The position numbers and the translations under genes are program-made. Shown here in pieces: positions 10,902-19,192 of a stretch of 62,182 nt of DNA (its first letter is position 1; the number at the start of each line of letters is the position of its first letter). The stretch is from Eubacteriales bacterium (GTDB lineage Bacteria > Bacillota > Clostridia > Oscillospirales > CAG-382): assembly GCA_045539625.1 (NCBI GenBank), contig JAZQFS010000125.1, positions 1 to 62,182 of the forward strand. Reading direction: 5' to 3'. The notes under the pieces were generated by a model. The model was given only the letters and a program-made list of their open reading frames with translations. It ran no database searches and was not told where the DNA came from.

Positions 10902-12092
10902 TCAATACTTCATTTTCTTTTTCTTCATTCTTCTTATAAACGTGATGATAATAAGAATGGTAAGGGCAAGCCCTAAAATTATGCCCACTATAACAAGCTC
11001 GCTTATGTCAAGTGCGCTTCTCACTTCAATCCAGCTTGAGTCGTACAGTGAGTTGATGTCGCCTGACAGGGCAATGTAGCTTTCGGCATTTTCAAGCTGT
11101 TCGTCGGTAGGATATATTCTTTCGTCCTTGCCAACAATTTCTGATGCCTTCATGTGGGGAGTAAAGTAGCAGATGTATTCACAGTTGGCAACGGCAATTT
11201 CCGTTTCGCAAAGGAAGTTGATGAAAGCCTCGGCGGCTTCCTTGTTCTTTGCACCCTTTGGAATACATATGGAGTCGATGAAAATATTAAAGCCTTCTTC
11301 GGGATAGTAGAAGTCAAGGTCTTCGTTAACGTCCATCATTGAAGCACAGTCGCCTGCATAGTAGGGAGCGGCATACGCCGATTCACCCTCCATCTTGTTG
11401 AAAATCTGATCCATTACATACGCCTGATTTACAAGACGTTGCTTTTTCAGCTCTTCTGTAGCTTTCTGAATTTCATCGGGATTTTCGCTGTTGAGAGAAT
11501 AGCCAAGCTTCTTGAGAGCAATGCCGTATGCATCTCTGGAGTTTGAGAACATAAGAATTGTACCTGCATACTTTTCGTTCCACAGTAAATCCCACGTGCC
11601 GATGTCTTCTTGGTCAACATACTTTGTGTTGTACACAACACCTACCGTACCCCAGGTGTAGGGAACGGAAAACTCGCCTGTTTTGTCAAAGTCGGGCGTT
11701 TTGTACTTGTCATCAATCATGGCGTAATTTGGAATGTTGTCATAATTGATTTTTTCAAGCATATCTTCATTAATCATTCTTGCTATCATATAGTCGGAAG
11801 GAATGATAATGTCGTATCTTGAGTTGCTGGAGGACAGCTTTGCATAAAGGTCCTCGTTTGTTTCGTAGGTGGTGTAGGTAACGTCAATGCCTGACAGCTC
11901 TTCAAATTCGGCTATAACGTCAATAGAGCCTTCGCCGCCGTCGGAAATGTATTCACCCCAGTTGTATACGTTAAGGGTGATGTCCTTGTCACGGAATTTT
12001 GCGTAGTAGCTTTCGTCTTCAACCTCAACCTTGGCACTGACAGTCAAAAGAGTGAGGCAGGAGAGGAGAAATGTAAATAAAACCTTTTTCAT
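10902..12092 (-). CDS. potD: Spermidine/putrescine ABC transporter substrate-binding protein
   Basis: LNVYNWGEYI, YDIIIPSDYM, PYTWGTVG; C-terminal TM helix and basic tail. Confidence 0.93.
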   Translation of the reverse strand: MKKVLFTFLLSCLTLLTVSAKVEVEDESYYAKFRDKDITLNVYNWGEYISDGGEGSIDVIAEFEELSGIDVTYTTYETNEDLYAKLSSSNSRYDIIIPSDYMIARMINEDMLEKINYDNIPNYAMIDDKYKTPDFDKTGEFSVPYTWGTVGVVYNTKYVDQEDIGTWDLLWNEKYAGTILMFSNSRDAYGIALKKLGYSLNSENPDEIQKATEELKKQRLVNQAYVMDQIFNKMEGESAYAAPYYAGDCASMMDVNEDLDFYYPEEGFNIFIDSICIPKGAKNKEAAEAFINFLCETEIAVANCEYICYFTPHMKASEIVGKDERIYPTDEQLENAESYIALSGDINSLYDSSWIEVRSALDISELVIVGIILGLALTILIIITFIRRMKKKKMKY

Positions 12093-12105
12093 ATTCGTTC
12101 CTCCC

Positions 12106-12909
12106 TTACTTTTTTGAAAACGCCGAAGCTTTTCTTTCTTCTTCCTTTTCCTTTTTTGCACCGATAACATTAACAGTTATGAGAATGGCAAAAACGATTA
12201 CAAAAAGAATTGTGGATAAAGCATTGATTTCGGGGCTGATACGCTTTTTTGTCATGGAATAAATGGTAATGGGTAAAGTCTGTGACTCGGGACCCGATGT
12301 AAAGTAGCTGATAATAAAGTCGTCGATGGAGTAGGTAAGAGCCATAAGAGCACCTGTTACAACACCGGGCATAATTTCGGGAAGAACAACCTTGAAAAAT
12401 GCCTGACGTCTGTTGCAGCCGAGGTCCATTGCCGCCTCATACAGATTTACATTCATTTGTCTGAGCTTAGGAAGAACGCTGAGAACAACCGTAGGAAGAC
12501 AGAAGGTGATGTGAGCAAGAATAAGCGTCACATACCCCGGTGTCATTCTGAAGAATGTAAATAACAGCATCAGAGAAATACCCGTTACAATTTCGGGGTT
12601 GAGGTTCTGAAGATAGGTTGCGTCCTTAAGTAAGGATTTGGGAAGCTTTTTCATATTGTGCATACCGAAAGCCGCCGCCGTACCTAAGACCGCCGAAACA
12701 AGAGCCGAAATAAGAGCGATAATAAGAGTGTTGAGAACAGAGGTTAAAATCAGCTCGTTGTGAATAAGCTCGTTGTACCACTTAAAGGAAAAACCTGTCC
12801 ATACGTTGCCCTTTGTTTCGTTGAAGGAAAACATAATGAGCACAAATATGGGAAGATAGAGAAAAGCAAAAACAAGGATAATGTAGAATTTGGAGAGAAA
12901 CTTTTTCAT
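12106..12909 (-). CDS. potC: Polyamine ABC permease
   Basis: EAAMDLG loop, SIDDFIISYF. Confidence 0.93.
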   Translation of the reverse strand: MKKFLSKFYIILVFAFLYLPIFVLIMFSFNETKGNVWTGFSFKWYNELIHNELILTSVLNTLIIALISALVSAVLGTAAAFGMHNMKKLPKSLLKDATYLQNLNPEIVTGISLMLLFTFFRMTPGYVTLILAHITFCLPTVVLSVLPKLRQMNVNLYEAAMDLGCNRRQAFFKVVLPEIMPGVVTGALMALTYSIDDFIISYFTSGPESQTLPITIYSMTKKRISPEINALSTILFVIVFAILITVNVIGAKKEKEEERKASAFSKK

Positions 12910-13730
12910 ACCATCGAATCCTCCATTTCATCGTTGTCAAAGCTGTTGAATATTCCCATGCTGATAAATACAACAACCATAAGAAGTAAGCTTGTTGCCG
13001 CACCGTAGTTGAGGTTGTACTCGTTGCCGAGGAACTGCTGCTGTATAAGGTCTCCGATAAGGAAGCAGTTGCTGCCGCCGAGAAGTCCCGAAATAACAAA
13101 GGTGCTGACAGCGGGTACAAATGTCATTGTAATACCCGTTAAAATACCGGGAAAACTGAGGGGAAGCACGATTTTGGTGATAACCTTTGTGGAGTTACAG
13201 CCTAAATCCTGTGCCGCCTCGATAACGCTTTTGTCAATCTTGGTCATAATTGAGTAAAGGGGCGTTATCATAAATGGCAGATAGTTGTATACCATACCCA
13301 GAACAACGGCAGCTCTGTTGTTGATAAGCTGAAGTCGGGGAAGACCGATGGATGCCAAAAAGTTGTTGATAATACCGTTGTTGTCAAGGATTGTAACCCA
13401 TGCATAGGTACGAAGCAGAAAGTTCATCCACATGGGAAGCATTACCATAAGCAGAAGAAGCCGCTGGGTACGCTTTGAACAGCGTGACATGGTAAATGCA
13501 AGGGGGTAGGCGATAACAAGACAGATAACCGTAGCAATAACAGCAAGATAAACCGAACGGATAAGGACGGGAAAATACTTGCTGGCATTTGCCAGGTTTT
13601 CAATACTTATAACGCCTGTGCTTTTTGAAGTAAAAGCAAAGTAAATAACAAGTAAAAAGGGCATAACCGTAAAGAACAGTACCCATAATACGTAGGGAAA
13701 TGCCGCAAATTTAGAACTGTTTTTCTTCAT
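12906..13730 (-). CDS. potB: Polyamine ABC permease
   Basis: [20 protein letters not shown]. Confidence 0.93.
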
Positions 13731-14820
13731 TTGCCATACCCCCGTCATCTACCTGTGCATCAATAACTACCTTGTTGGATTCTGTCTTGTGCATAATGTG
13801 AATGTCCTCGGGAGTGAGGCTCATACCGATAAAGGCACCGGGCTCTGCGGACTTTGTGGAGTGAATCTTCCACTTTGTGCCGAAGCAGTCAACAATAATT
13901 TCGTAGTGAACGCCCTTGAAGGTAACTGTCTCAACGGTGCCGTCGATGGTGTTTTCACCGGGAGGTCCGAATTTTATGTCTTCGGGACGGATAACAACGT
14001 CAACGGGAGTCATCTTGCCAAAGCCCTTGTCCACACAGACAAAGCGGTTTCCTGCAAACTCAACGTCAAAGTCGTCGTGCATAAGTCCCGATACAATGTT
14101 GCTCTCGCCAATAAACTTTGCAACAAAGGCATTGACAGGCTCGTTGTAGATGTCCTGAGGAGTACCGATCTGGTCGATAACGCCGCCGTTCATAACAACA
14201 ATTCTGTCGCTCATTGTAAGAGCTTCTTCCTGGTCGTGGGTAACATATATAAAAGTAATTCCAAGCTGCTGCTGAATCTTTTTAAGCTCAATCTGCATTT
14301 CTTTTCTCAGCTGTAAGTCAAGTGCACCCAGGGGCTCGTCAAGAAGCAGCATTCTCGGGTGATTAATCAAAGCACGTGCAATAGCCACTCGCTGCTGCTG
14401 ACCGCCCGAAAGGTAGTCAACACGCTTTGCCCCGTAGTTTTTGAGGTTAACCATTTCAAGCATTTCCATAACACGCTTGTGTACCTCGTTGTCGGGAGTC
14501 TTTTTAAGACGCAGACCGAAGGCTATGTTTTCGTATACGTTTAAATGTTGGAAAAGTGCATATTTCTGGAAAACAGTGTTTACCTGTCTTTTGTACGGCG
14601 GCACCTTGTTTATAAGCTTGCCGTCAAAATACACATTTCCCTCATTAGGCTCAATAAAACCTGCAATTATTCGCAGAGTTGTGGTTTTACCGCATCCCGA
14701 GGGACCAAGTAAAGTAATAAATTCCTTGTCGTGAATGTCAAGGTTGATTCCTTTCAGAATCTTTTCATCGTCGTATTTAACTACGAGATTTTCCAATTTT
14801 ACAATCACACTTTTGTCCAA
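13711..14820 (-). CDS. potA: Polyamine ABC transporter ATPase
   Basis: [32 protein letters not shown]-like C-terminus; TTG 14820 is 8 nt after GGAGG. Confidence 0.95.
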
Positions 14821-14828
14821 TCCTAACA

Positions 14829-14940
14829 CCTCCGTACCGTGTTGCTGTGCGGTACATTTTCTGCTGTATGATTACAGCTTGCTACGGAAACCCGTCTTTT
14901 GCAACATCAGGATTAAGACGAATTTGCACCCGTAACAAAT
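14829..14940 (-). ncRNA. Structured 5' leader of potABCD, candidate cis-regulatory RNA/riboswitch
   Basis: Four helices, complementary loops (UGUUGC/GCAACA) and an alternative anti-SD pairing; see findings. Confidence 0.55.
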
Positions 14941-14947
14941 CACGATA

Positions 14948-14976
14948 ATAATACTTATTTTGTCGAAAAAAATCTA
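14948..14976 (-). promoter_or_regulatory. Putative sigmaA promoter of the pot operon
   Basis: TAGATT-17 bp-TATTAT, placing +1 near 14940. Confidence 0.5.
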
Positions 14977-15070
14977 CTGCTTAACGATAAATAAAATGTG
15001 AATAATATTAACAATTTTCAAAATAAATCTTATGTTTAGTCATTTTTGGGCATTATACATCGTTATATGC

Positions 15071-15104
15071 AAAAAAAAGAGCCGCACCTTTTAAGATGCA
15101 GCTC
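15071..15104 (-). terminator. Intrinsic terminator after carB
   Basis: gagctgcatctt-aa-aaggtgcggctc then T8 on minus strand. Confidence 0.85.
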
Positions 15105-15127
15105 CCAATATTGTTGGGTATATATAC

Positions 15128-18100
15128 TTAAATCACAATTTCGCCCGTGAAGGTGATTTCGGCATTACCTGAAAGGAATACGCCCTCGTCTGTGTATCTT
15201 ACAATAAGGTCGCCGCCCTTTAGCTTTACGGTAATGTCTGTGTTCTTTTTGCAGTAGCCGCAAAGACAAGCCGCAACCGCCGCCGCACATGCACCTGTAC
15301 CGCACGCCATTGTTTCGCCGTTGCCACGCTCCCAAACACGCATCTTGAGAGTGTTTTCGTTGAGCACCTTTACAAACTCGGTGTTCACTCTTTCGGGGAA
15401 TAATTCGTGGCTTTCAAACATAGGACCTATTGTTGATACGTCTAAGTTTTCAAGGCTTTCGTCAGCACCGAAGAATACAACGCAGTGAGGGTTACCTATG
15501 GACACGCAGGTGATTCTGTAAGGTCTGTAGCCAACGTGAATGGGGAACGCCACAACCTTTTCGCCGGGAAGCGTCACGGGAATGTTTTCGGGATTGAGAA
15601 TTACCTTGCCCATATCAACACATGCAGACTGAACAACGCCCTGCTTAACCTCAAGAGCAACCTTCTTTACGCCCACGGGAGTTTCTATTGAGATGTCAGT
15701 TTTGTCAACCATGCCGTTGTCGTAGAGATACTTACCTACACATCTCAATGCGTTGCCGCTCATCATACCCGGTGTGCCGTCCTTGTTGTAGATAGTCATC
15801 TTAGCATCGGCAACCTTGGATTTTCTGATAAGAACAACACCGTCTCCGCCGATACCGAAGTGTCTGTCGGACAGCATTACGGCAAGTCCCTCGGGATTGT
15901 TGATTTTCTGCTTAAAGCAGTTAAAGTAAATGTAGTCATTTCCGCAGCCCTGCATCTTTGTAAACTGAAGCTTTTCTTTTTCGCTTCTCATATCGTTGAT
16001 GTTTACAAGCTCTGTAGAAACTGAGGTGTATCTTGATGTTAAGCTGTCTGCAACTGCGTGAGCCGTGTCTATGGCAGTAAGACAGGGGATACTTCTTTCA
16101 ATAGCCTTACGTCTTAAAATTACACTGTTTCTTGTGGGGATTCTGCCGTGGTCGCTTGTTGAAATAACGTAGTCAACCGCACCTTTGTCCATAAGAGCGA
16201 GCCTGTCTTCGCTGTTTTCCACGATTTCCACGGGAATGTCGGCGTTCTGGATAACCTTGCCCGTTCCGTCGGAGGCATAAATCTTAAAGCCGTTTTCGTG
16301 GAACTTTTCGGCAACGTCAACAATTTCCAGCTTGTCGCTGTTTCTTACCGTGATAAGAACTCCGCCCTTGGTGTGATTCATCTTGTAGCCTGCTGCAATA
16401 AGACCTTTACAGATAGCTTCCTTGATGGTGCTTGCAATACCTAAAACTTCACCTGTGGATTTCATTTCGGGACCGAGCATACTGTCAACACCGTGGAGCT
16501 TTTCAAAGGAGAATACAGGCACCTTTACGGCAACATAGGGCGAATCGGGATAAATGCCCGTTCCGAAGCCCATGCTTTCAAGGCTTTCGGTGTTTTCAGG
16601 CTCATTTTCCTTGCCAATCATTGTTCTTGTCGCAAGGTCAACCATAGGTATGCCTGTTACTTTGCTGATGTAAGGAATTGTTCTTGAAGAACGGGGATTA
16701 ACTTCAATTACATAAAGCTGTTCGTTGTTGATGAGGTACTGAATGTTTACAAGACCTCTTGTTTCAAGAGCAACTGCAAGCTTCTTTGTGCAGTCAAGCA
16801 CTTCTTCACGCATCTTGTCGCTGATACGCTTTGCAGGGTATATGGCAATTGAGTCGCCTGAGTGTACGCCTGTACGTTCAACGTGCTCCATAATACCGGG
16901 AATAAGAATGTCCTTGCCGTCGCAAATGGCGTCAACCTCAATTTCAAGTCCCATAAGATACTTGTCGATAAGAATGGGGTTCTTGTCGGTGTGGGTAAGG
17001 ATTATTTTCATATATTCCTTGATGTCATCGGGATTCTGAGCGATGATCATATTCTGACCGCCGAGAACATATGAAGGACGCATAAGAACGGGATAGCCGA
17101 TTTTGTCAGCAACCGACAGCGCTTCTTCTTCGGTAAATACCGTACAGCCCACGGGACGCTTGATGTTAAGCTTTTCAAGAAGAGCATCAAATATCTTTCT
17201 GTCTTCCGCCGCATCAATGCTTGAAGCACCCGTACCGAGAATCTTTATTCCGTTTTTGTCAAGGAAGCTTGTAAGCTTGATAGCTGTCTGACCGCCGAAA
17301 GCAACAACCGCACCGTAAGGCTTTTCGGTCTGTATAATGCTCATTACGTCCTCGTCTGTAAGAGGCTCAAAGTAAAGTCTGTCAGCCGTGTCAAAGTCTG
17401 TTGAAACGGTTTCGGGATTGTTGTTTACGATTACAACCTCGTAGCCAAGCTTTTTAAGTGAACGTACACAGTGAACGGAAGCATAGTCAAATTCGATACC
17501 CTGACCGATTCTGATAGGACCTGAGCCGAATACGATAATTGTTTTCTTTCTGTCCTTTTTGTTTGCAAGGAATTCGGCAGCTTCGTTTTCTTCGTCGAAG
17601 GTGGAGTAGAAGTAAGGTGTTTCTGCTGAGTATTCCGCAGCACAGGTGTCAACCATCTTGAAGGAAGCATACTTTTTGTTCTGTATCTTGCAGCCCGAAA
17701 GGTTTTCAATGTGCTTGTCGGGGAAGCCCATACGCTTTGCCGCCATATAAAGCTCGTCGGTGAGAACACCCTTCTGAAGCTCACGCTCCATACCGAGAAT
17801 GTTTGTAAGCTTTGTAAGGAAGAATTTGTCTATTTTGGTAAGCTCGTGAATGAATTCAATACTCTTGCCTCTCTTTAAGAATTCGTAAATGATAAAGAGA
17901 CGCTCGTCGGTACATTCTTTGAGACTTGCAAGCAAGTCCTCGTCGGAAACATCTGCAAGATTGTCCTGATTGAGGCTCATGTGCTTGATTTCGGCACCTC
18001 TTACAGCCTTCATAAGAGCTTCTTCAAAGCACTGACCGATGGACATAACCTCGCCCGTTGCCTTCATCTGTGTGCCCAGCTTTCTCTTTGCATAAACAAA

Positions 18101-19192
18101 CTTGTCAAAGGGCCACTTGGGGAACTTTACAACTACATAGTCGATTGTAGGCTCAAAGCAGGCAACGGTTTTGCCCGTTACCGCATTCTGAATTTCGTCA
18201 AGAGTGTAGCCTATTGCAATTTTTGTAGCAACCTTTGCGATTGGGTAGCCTGTTGCCTTTGAAGCAAGTGCAGATGAACGGGAAACTCTGGGGTTAACCT
18301 CAATTACCGCATATTCAAAGGAGTCGGGCTTGAGAGCAAACTGACAGTTACAGCCGCCTTCAACCTCAAGAGCGTTAACAATCTTGAGAGCCGCTTTTCT
18401 CAGCATTGAATATTCCTTGCTTGAGAGGGTAAGAGCGGGAGCTGCAACTATGGAGTCGCCTGTGTGAATACCTACAGGGTCAAAGTTTTCCATGGAGCAA
18501 ACGGTAATGGAATTGCCCTTGCTGTCACGGATAACCTCAAATTCGATTTCCTTCCAGCCCGAAATACACTTTTCAACAAGAATCTGTGTAATGGGGGAAA
18601 GTCGAAGACCGTTTGTACCGATTTCGGTAAGCTCTTCAACGTTTTCCGCAATACCGCCGCCTGTACCGCCCAAAGTAAATGCGGGACGTACAATTACGGG
18701 GTAGCCGATTTCTTCTGCAAAGGCAAGAGCGCTGTCAAGATCGGTTACAACCTTTGAAGGGATAATAGGCTGGTCAATGGACTCCATGGTGTCCTTGAAC
18801 ATCTGTCTGTCCTCGGCCTTGTCAATTGTTTCGGGCTTTGCACCGAGAAGCTTTACGCCCATCTTGTCAAGGAAGCCGTCCTTTGCAAGCTGCATTGAAA
18901 GGGTAAGACCTGTCTGTCCGCCAAGGGAGGAAAGAAGGCTGTCGGGACGTTCCTTTTCTATAATTCTCTTAACTGTTTCAAGGTTGAGAGGCTCGATGTA
19001 AATTTTGTCGGCCATTATGTTGTCTGTCATAATGGTAGCGGGGTTGGAGTTGACGAGGATAACCTCAAGACCTGCTTCCTTAAGAGCACGGCAAGCCTGA
19101 GTTCCCGCATAGTCAAACTCAGCCGCCTGACCGATAACGATAGGACCTGAGCCTATCACCATAACACGCTTTAATTCTTTATTTAACGGCAT
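15128..19192 (-). CDS. carB: Carbamoyl-phosphate synthetase large subunit fused to a C-terminal diaminopimelate epimerase (DapF)-like domain
   Basis: GSGPIVIGQAAEFDY, two ATP-grasp units, MGS domain, then FTKMQGCGNDY...GNPHCV...RVWERGNGETMACGTG. Confidence 0.95.
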   Translation of the reverse strand: MPLNKELKRVMVIGSGPIVIGQAAEFDYAGTQACRALKEAGLEVILVNSNPATIMTDNIMADKIYIEPLNLETVKRIIEKERPDSLLSSLGGQTGLTLSMQLAKDGFLDKMGVKLLGAKPETIDKAEDRQMFKDTMESIDQPIIPSKVVTDLDSALAFAEEIGYPVIVRPAFTLGGTGGGIAENVEELTEIGTNGLRLSPITQILVEKCISGWKEIEFEVIRDSKGNSITVCSMENFDPVGIHTGDSIVAAPALTLSSKEYSMLRKAALKIVNALEVEGGCNCQFALKPDSFEYAVIEVNPRVSRSSALASKATGYPIAKVATKIAIGYTLDEIQNAVTGKTVACFEPTIDYVVVKFPKWPFDKFVYAKRKLGTQMKATGEVMSIGQCFEEALMKAVRGAEIKHMSLNQDNLADVSDEDLLASLKECTDERLFIIYEFLKRGKSIEFIHELTKIDKFFLTKLTNILGMERELQKGVLTDELYMAAKRMGFPDKHIENLSGCKIQNKKYASFKMVDTCAAEYSAETPYFYSTFDEENEAAEFLANKKDRKKTIIVFGSGPIRIGQGIEFDYASVHCVRSLKKLGYEVVIVNNNPETVSTDFDTADRLYFEPLTDEDVMSIIQTEKPYGAVVAFGGQTAIKLTSFLDKNGIKILGTGASSIDAAEDRKIFDALLEKLNIKRPVGCTVFTEEEALSVADKIGYPVLMRPSYVLGGQNMIIAQNPDDIKEYMKIILTHTDKNPILIDKYLMGLEIEVDAICDGKDILIPGIMEHVERTGVHSGDSIAIYPAKRISDKMREEVLDCTKKLAVALETRGLVNIQYLINNEQLYVIEVNPRSSRTIPYISKVTGIPMVDLATRTMIGKENEPENTESLESMGFGTGIYPDSPYVAVKVPVFSFEKLHGVDSMLGPEMKSTGEVLGIASTIKEAICKGLIAAGYKMNHTKGGVLITVRNSDKLEIVDVAEKFHENGFKIYASDGTGKVIQNADIPVEIVENSEDRLALMDKGAVDYVISTSDHGRIPTRNSVILRRKAIERSIPCLTAIDTAHAVADSLTSRYTSVSTELVNINDMRSEKEKLQFTKMQGCGNDYIYFNCFKQKINNPEGLAVMLSDRHFGIGGDGVVLIRKSKVADAKMTIYNKDGTPGMMSGNALRCVGKYLYDNGMVDKTDISIETPVGVKKVALEVKQGVVQSACVDMGKVILNPENIPVTLPGEKVVAFPIHVGYRPYRITCVSIGNPHCVVFFGADESLENLDVSTIGPMFESHELFPERVNTEFVKVLNENTLKMRVWERGNGETMACGTGACAAAVAACLCGYCKKNTDITVKLKGGDLIVRYTDEGVFLSGNAEITFTGEIVI

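Follow-up and report, generated by a model that had tools for sequence, protein, structure and literature searches.

A candidate cis-regulatory RNA family with kissing loops in the potABCD leader of uncultured Clostridia

Two hairpins whose loops pair with each other precede the ribosome-binding site of a potABCD operon in the window (the whole stretch of 62,182 nt of DNA analysed here), and the same arrangement recurs in front of potA in related genomes. Compensatory changes among these relatives leave us highly confident that the leader is a conserved structured cis element with kissing loops. Judged from its sequence, it is a candidate for a new family of cis-regulatory RNAs, of a general kind already known and most likely translational. 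The reading that we prefer, with a probability of roughly 50%, is a new family of cis-acting structured potABCD leaders in which the kissing fold restricts the access of the 30S subunit and is modulated by an effector. To our knowledge the regulation of polyamine uptake in Gram-positive anaerobes is largely unknown. The leader, an RNA of about 110 nt whose tertiary kissing contact is mapped by natural compensatory changes, is a concrete candidate, and one that can be tested, for polyamine homeostasis at the level of RNA in uncultured Clostridia of the gut and rumen. Its general importance is limited by a narrow range of four genera.

Operon, promoter and predicted fold of the leader

The leader occupies positions 14938-14834 of the minus strand, immediately 5' of potABCD, within the gap of 308 nt that separates the upstream open reading frame (15128-19192) from the four-gene operon. 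The products of the operon (10902..14820, minus strand) were assigned with NCBIfam as PotA, PotB, PotC and PotD, a spermidine/putrescine ABC importer. The features of the region, all on the minus strand, are as follows.

15287-15272, minus strand: terminator-like site (terminator scan)
15106-15077, minus strand: terminator-like site at the end of the upstream gene, with a strong hairpin (terminator scan)
14945..14976, minus strand: probable promoter, with a -35-like TAGATT (14976-14971) and a -10-like TATTAT (14953-14948; TATTATTAT to 14945)
14938-14930 with 14887-14879 (span 14879..14938), minus strand: helix P1, UUGUUACGG/CCGUAGCAA, with one U-G pair; present in the minimum free energy (MFE) fold
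14922-14915 with 14898-14891 (span 14891..14922), minus strand: stem of helix P2, UUCGUCUU/AAGACGGG, with two U-G pairs
14901..14906, minus strand: first kissing strand, UGUUGC, in the 3' half of the P2 loop
14878-14873 with 14868-14863, minus strand: helix P3, GCUGUA/UACAGC, loop AUCA; an optional, variable insert in the linker
14856..14862, minus strand: purine-rich linker AGAAAAU, aligned with GRAAA in most relatives
14855-14850 with 14839-14834, minus strand: helix P4, GUACCG/CGGUAC, with GGAGG (14833-14829) directly 3' of it
14845-14840, minus strand: second kissing strand, GCAACA, the 3' six bases of the P4 loop
14818..14833, minus strand: translation initiation region, with the Shine-Dalgarno (SD) sequence GGAGGUG (14833-14827), a spacer and the UUG start (14820-14818)
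14820-13711, minus strand: potA (NCBIfam MMSYN1_0197, 2.4e-165; TIGR01187 above its cut-off)
14677-14660, minus strand: terminator-like site inside potA (terminator scan)
13748-12906, minus strand: potB (NCBIfam, 2.9e-60, below the strict E. coli-type equivalog cut-off)
12909-12106, minus strand: potC (NCBIfam, 2.8e-72, below the strict E. coli-type equivalog cut-off)
12170-10902, minus strand: potD (NCBIfam, 9.9e-59, below the strict E. coli-type equivalog cut-off)

The program listing the open reading frames placed the start of potA at GTG 14829. We took the UUG at 14820-14818 as the start because PotA alignments begin there in 31 of 32 relatives, and the gap between GGAGG and this codon is 8 nt in all 32 leaders. 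The same UUG is present in relatives from genera g9 and g10 that do not carry the motif, and its presence is therefore not linked to the RNA element. In the secondary-structure ensembles of seven representatives the mean probability of the SD being unpaired was 0.40-0.82. Within the region 14818-14795 of the minus strand of the window, and in relatives, the UUG codon itself was often paired with codons 4-7 of potA, its probability of being unpaired ranging from 0.01 to 0.67 in the seven leaders. As a separate observation, the upstream frame (minus strand) encodes a single product of 1354 amino acids in which a carbamoyl-phosphate synthase large subunit (residues 1-1055) is followed by the diaminopimelate epimerase DapF (residues 1076-1352) with no intervening stop; an unusual fusion or a read-through from sequencing or assembly would explain it.

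The earlier note on this DNA had put the transcription start at the beginning of P1. The promoter elements recognized by eye, separated by a spacer of 17 nt, and the same layout in relatives, which carry TG-TATTAT or, in the g4 genomes, TTGACA-17-TATAGT at this position, agree with such a placement, but the consensus promoter scan does not, as it gave no minus-strand promoter (none of its three promoter-like sites lies on this strand). A start at about 14941, just 5' of P1, is therefore put forward as plausible. Contigs from a bovine-gut metatranscriptome (four runs of one study), derived from a relative and differing from the window at 14-15 positions over ~395 nt, cover 14483-14878 and extend ~40-48 nt past 14878 in unlike sequence that contains the P2-loop motif; they may include DNA and establish neither transcription nor the position of a 5' end.

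Two further sequence features were noticed around the promoter. Its spacer holds a near-palindrome of a T-run and an A-run, TTTTTCGACAAAA (14970-14958, minus strand), which reads TTTTGTCGATAAAA in relatives and AAATCGACAAAAAA in g4, where a second copy lies 5' of the -35 element. It is kept, by eye, across g1, g8 and g4 and could serve as the operator of a DNA-binding regulator that would act alongside the RNA. Some 20 nt 5' of the -35 element, at ~14985-15003 of the minus strand, most genomes of the genus (leaders L002 and L005-L012) share a conserved block TTGTTCACATAAAGTTAAT, which is TTATTCACATTTTATTTAT in the window.

Read on the minus strand, P1 to P4 all lie where the earlier note had drawn them, and the MFE structure calculated with RNAfold contains the same four helices. 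P1 encloses an asymmetric internal loop and P2. The P2 loop comprises 16 nt (AAUCCUGAUGUUGCAA, 14914-14899) and the P4 loop 10 nt (CACAGCAACA, 14849-14840); the kissing contact proposed there proved to be exact, UGUUGC (14906-14901) being fully complementary to GCAACA (14845-14840), and it is retained in all 33 leaders collected. Taken by themselves, the fold and the loop complementarity of the window sequence are no more than chance: the stability of the fold corresponds to z = -1.43, with 14 of 200 shuffled sequences as stable (RNAfold), and a complement of 6 nt to the P4 loop occurs within the upstream 93 nt in 83 of 1000 shuffles of the window leader (4-17% of shuffles in the other leaders with 6-bp kissing helices). 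The helices and the loop-loop pairing are judged to be under selection because the comparison with relatives shows it.

On the plus strand, P4 appears at 14834-14855 as its reverse complement, with ATTTTCT after it, and this was scored as a terminator-like site. The scan is probably misled here, since there is no upstream plus-strand gene and the G-U pairs in P4 of the relatives favour the minus strand.

Conservation and distribution of the element

Among 61 related genomes searched at the DNA level, 12 of the 14 that belong to the genus (the window genome, G000, included) gave the leader in full, 71-94% identical. In G003, another member of this genus, and in three genomes from two other genera the match was limited to the 3' part (P4, SD and start). 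Sixteen leaders were then aligned and converted into a covariance model with P2, P3 and P4. Of 151 family genomes, 31 matched the model, each of them exactly once. These are distributed over four genera (g1, 12 of 13 in addition to G000; g4, six of seven; g8, 11 of 13; g9, one of three), and no match was obtained in 114 genomes of the 11 other genera of the family. At the level of the order three of 151 genomes matched, two of them from g1; the third, G059 (E 0.0055), has no P4 and no PotA match and was excluded from all counts. Among 151 genomes at the level of the class G000 alone was found. A scan of a genome collection for exact patterns yielded 43 loci, 24 of which have the motif, with bit scores equal to those of leaders already known, and the remaining 19 gave no match to the covariance model; the 24 come from metagenome-assembled genomes labelled Clostridia, Eubacteriales or Oscillospiraceae, several of them from animal or human gut samples. 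The same kind of scan in metagenomes gave nine loci with eight model matches and two new sequences. In total 33 distinct leaders were assembled, including that of G034, which was read by hand.

The motif is directly followed by potA in all 32 copies examined. The importer is far commoner in the family than the RNA element, PotD orthologues being present in 47 of 61 family genomes and in 13 of 15 genera. Close orthologues of potA and potD, with the UUG start and with neither P2 nor P4, are found in g10 (motif in none of ten genomes) and in two of the three g9 genomes, hence the element is not essential for the regulation of pot genes. In these g9 and g10 leaders (L112-L117, from G021, G071, G022, G035, G082 and G092), all lacking P2 and P4, the UUG is kept, and those of g10 have ACACGGAGGU in front of it. 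From its sequence, the g10 leader looks like a derivative that has lost the P4 stem.

Comparison of the structure in related potA leaders had been set as a check by the earlier note, and the fold passed it: the structure is conserved, and P2, P3 and P4 covary in a shuffle test. In the model-made alignment of 31 distinct leaders 93.0% of the pair cells hold standard pairs against 78.0% in shuffled alignments, 17 of 25 pairs have changes on both sides, and none of 500 shuffles matched the real alignment in any of five measures; sliding the partner strand by 1-3 columns reduced pairing to 30-50%. The alignment was fitted to P2, P3 and P4 and therefore flatters the values for P2 (89.6% of cells paired; double-sided changes in six of the seven modelled pairs), P3 (double-sided changes in six of six pairs) and P4 (99.4% of cells paired; double-sided changes in three of six pairs). 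It was not fitted to the kissing helix, for which 95.5% of cells are paired. P2 was located by looking for the sequence complementary to the P4 loop, a procedure that is circular with respect to the placement of P2 but not to the shuffle test, and in five of 32 leaders its stem and loop were set by eye. The frequent G-U and U-G pairs in P2 identify the minus, potA-sense, strand as the one that folds.

At least five contiguous Watson-Crick pairs can form between the loops in each of the 33 leaders (six pairs in 25, seven in five and five in three leaders). The P2 strand always comes from the 3' half of its loop, and the P4 strand from the 3' end of its own. UGUUGC/GCAACA is the commonest combination (22 leaders), followed by UGCUAUG/CAUAGCA (four) and GUUGC/GCAAC (three), and one leader each has UGUUAUG/CAUAACA (G067), UGCUGC/GCAGCA (G091), UGCUGU/ACAGCA (G030) and GCUGUG/CACAGC (G034). 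G091 differs from its own genus, g8, by one compensated pair, and compensated pairs set G067 and G030 each apart from the rest of g4; such changes inside genera indicate that the compensation arose several times. A matrix of cognate and non-cognate loops discriminated poorly between the two, as related loops pair in other registers, with off-diagonal values of up to 7, and is given no weight as evidence.

The comparison also separates a conserved core from its variable surroundings. An outer helix resembling P1 encloses P2 in 18 of 32 MFE folds, with differing sequences. In eight others a small 5' hairpin takes the place of P1, and most g4 leaders have neither and begin almost at P2. The lack of P1 concerns two of the four genera, g4 and a large share of g8. 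P3 is absent from G033, G138, G091 and most g4 leaders; several leaders of g8 lack it. On the alignment, P1 and P3 are lineage-specific and dispensable, and P2 and P4, joined by a variable linker, are the conserved core. Its invariant parts are a P2 loop of 14-19 nt with WAAU(C) in its 5' part and the kissing strand in its 3' part, a purine-rich linker, a P4 loop of 9-11 nt, and a fixed 3' order of P4, no spacer, GGAGGUG, a purine-rich gap and UUG. P4 ends at the SD in all 32 leaders and keeps its full stem of 6 bp in 31 of them (five of six pairs in G030). Conserved bases exposed in the loops are UAAUC and GA in P2 and NAMA in P4.

Mode of action and competing explanations

No terminator-like site was detected on the minus strand within 14940-14821, and a leader that attenuates transcription was discarded because the region from the promoter to the start codon holds no intrinsic terminator. 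From this and from the position of the conserved tertiary fold next to the ribosome-binding site, we infer that the element probably acts on the initiation of translation, a view held with somewhat better than even confidence. As the comparison shows, the P2 loop contributes its 3' half and the P4 loop its 3' side to a Watson-Crick kissing helix of 6-7 bp, and P4 ends exactly at the strong SD GGAGGUG, 8 nt (counted from GGAGG) before the weak UUG start. In the mechanism that we favour, this compact kissing fold would limit access of the 30S subunit to the SD/UUG region, and an effector would stabilise or remodel the fold. The most natural effector would be intracellular spermidine or putrescine, leading to feedback repression of the importer.

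A polyamine as the effector is a tentative proposal. The link, a plausible one, comes solely from the exclusive association of the element with potABCD. In the window genome (97% complete) no match above cut-off was obtained for the spermidine synthase gene speE, the SAM decarboxylase gene speD or the carboxy(nor)spermidine decarboxylase gene nspC, nor for either type of arginine decarboxylase, speA or the pyruvoyl enzyme; a single Orn/Lys/Arg decarboxylase (OKR_DC_1, C66:3368-4195) was found. Since speE, speD and nspC were not found, spermidine is probably imported, and on its gene content the organism may be a spermidine auxotroph dependent on PotABCD.

By the generic criterion for riboswitches, what we have is a conserved structured element with covariation, in cis to functionally coherent genes. 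We nevertheless consider it unlikely that the leader is a new riboswitch class in which spermidine or putrescine shuts off the translation of PotABCD through a kissing complex stabilised by the ligand or by polycations. If this were true, a transporter would for the first time have a polyamine riboswitch, the second class of polyamine-sensing RNA and one unrelated to SAM-I; with another effector the leader would still be a clean natural case of a loop-loop contact set against a ribosome-binding site. Several observations weigh against the effector-modulated kissing fold. No conserved alternative pairing accompanies it, the SD lies outside every covarying helix and is mostly unpaired in the ensembles, a kissing helix of 6-7 bp may form without any ligand, and it is loops, not a multi-helix junction, that hold the conserved bases. 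As P1 and P3 are dispensable, the element is also small for a selective aptamer.

The covarying, always formed P4 beside the SD speaks against the switch put forward in the earlier note, in which UUUCCGUA of the 3' strand of P1 (14890-14883) pairs with UACGGAGG (14836-14829) and occludes the SD at the cost of P1 and P4. The 8-bp pairing does exist in the window, and in G000, G001 and G013 no other upstream segment pairs better with the SD (-9.0 to -11.0 kcal/mol, shuffle fractions 0.02-0.11). It is confined to the window and its three closest relatives, leaders that are 89-94% identical, and is missing from 28 of 32 leaders. The SD of those 28 has its best upstream partner in another place, and for 27 of them this partner is no better than in shuffled sequences (fractions 0.15-0.96), the exception being G004 (0.05), which uses a different segment. 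Because the pairing is not conserved and P1 is absent from many members (g4 and much of g8), the switch was rejected as a feature of the family; we regard it as a very improbable account of the element, one that could at most persist as a peculiarity of the species group to which the window belongs. A covarying alternative helix that could serve as an expression platform was not found among the conserved leaders.

A further rival is an exchange of partners. Here the P2 loop would pair either with the P4 loop, leaving the initiation region free, or with the initiation region itself (UUAAUCC/GGAUUGG over the start codon and UUGCAC/GUGUGA after the SD), P4 acting as a decoy. Unconstrained RNAalifold prefers this long-range pairing. 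Its 13 pairs have 90.2% standard cells against 33-50% when slid, a contrast inflated because the structure was derived from the same sequences; the window duplex (-12.3 kcal/mol) is reached by 0.3% of shuffled loops, and the shuffle fraction is at most 0.1 in 14 of 32 leaders. Covariation, however, is lacking: 95 of 500 shuffles equal the paired percentage, two double-sided cells were counted where 1.0 is expected, and the columns hardly vary. The AAUCY/RGAUU part, which joins the 5' half of the P2 loop to the start codon and was also considered as a candidate on its own and rejected, has 84.5% of its cells paired with no double-sided change, a value equalled by 203 of 500 shuffles. Changes near the start in G091, G016 and G034 are not compensated in the P2 loop (by eye), and in g4 the pairing does not exceed chance (shuffle fractions of 0.15-0.50). 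On balance such an exchange seems quite improbable.

Two explanations dispense with a small-molecule sensor. P4 beside the SD, shaped by the kissing contact with P2, might be bound by a putative repressor, either dedicated or a moonlighting Pot protein, that competes with or traps the 30S subunit, as the bound protein does in ribosomal-protein and ThrRS operators. The conserved bases in exposed loops (UAAUC, GA and NAMA), the structure adjoining the SD and the failure to find a conserved alternative fold speak for such an operator, and the narrow taxonomic range would suit co-evolution with a lineage-specific protein. The near-palindrome in the promoter spacer suggests instead that a protein regulates the operon at the DNA level, and we consider an RNA operator unlikely. 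Alternatively, the element may sense nothing and set a fixed level of translation from the weak UUG, its 5' fold guarding the mRNA from 5'-end-dependent decay or keeping the SD away from the pyrimidine-rich sequence upstream. The mostly unpaired SD, a kissing helix long enough to be stable alone, the absence of the element from related genera, and P1 or a hairpin at the extreme 5' end in 26 of 32 leaders, where 5' stabilisers of mRNA have their structure, would all fit a constitutive role. Such a role, though, would need neither the zero-nucleotide spacing of P4 and SD nor non-pairing loop bases conserved across genera, nor a covarying tertiary contact, and we think it rather improbable.

A leader-peptide attenuator was also discarded: G010, G008 and L106 have AAGUUGC, CAGUUGC and UAGUUGC where the P2 loop of the window carries its AUG (GAUGUUGC), the lengths of the frames vary and no SD precedes the AUG (all by eye).

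Relation to known regulatory leaders

A search with all covariance models of Rfam 15 matched no family at its gathering threshold in the whole window, in line with the claim of novelty. Within 14700-15150 the best match overlapping the leader was RAGATH-30, at 17.4 bits against a gathering threshold of 59.5 (E 0.8), and the loci of six diverse relatives gave no Rfam match at E <= 0.1. The earlier note had not recognised the leader as SAM-I, and no SAM-I match was obtained even at E <= 10. The SAM-I aptamer is a four-helix junction, and the leader has no four-way junction because P3 and P4 lie outside P1. In the full-text literature no structured potA leader of the kissing type was found, a search to which a description given only in a supplement or unpublished would be invisible.

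The pseudoknotted translational operators of rpsO/S15 and of the alpha operon/S4 are bound by the encoded protein and have the SD or the start inside the pseudoknot. They resemble the leader in their non-AUG starts and in a tertiary fold at the SD or start that governs, here by inference, the binding of the 30S subunit. They differ from it in that the SD of the leader lies just outside the covarying helices.

Among RNAs connected with polyamines, the spermidine riboswitch, described as a variant of SAM-I on biosynthetic genes, is reported to be the only validated polyamine-sensing RNA of bacteria (Salvail et al. 2023, PMC10853860). It provides the same feedback 'off' logic for polyamine genes as proposed for our leader. 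However, it combines a SAM-I aptamer with transcription termination, whereas the leader has no SAM-I match and no terminator and precedes an importer; that text has no mention of potA or potD. The 'ABC-leader' of potABCD in Pasteurellaceae is, according to Naville and Gautheret (2010, PMC2965389), a conserved structured leader with a premature-terminator attenuator and an effector that is unknown. The two leaders share the position 5' of potABCD and a conserved structure; the ABC-leader belongs to Gammaproteobacteria, and ours has no terminator-like site and no sequence relation to it was found. In Borrelia, a truncation within potB is reported to depend on spermidine (PMC10319736).

In architecture the nearest analogue is the guanidine-II (mini-ykkC) riboswitch (PMC9300104). 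It too consists of two hairpins with a variable linker and a loop-loop contact, lies just 5' of the ribosome-binding site and controls translation. Its hairpins, though, carry two ACGR tetraloops whose kissing depends on the ligand, unlike the loops of 9-11 and 14-19 nt found here. Membership of the leader in this class was rejected, since its loops AAUCCUGAUGUUGCAA and CACAGCAACA are not ACGR tetraloops and no Rfam family was matched. The contact in the leader consists instead of 6-7 Watson-Crick pairs of freely covarying sequence, and its control of translation is a probable one.
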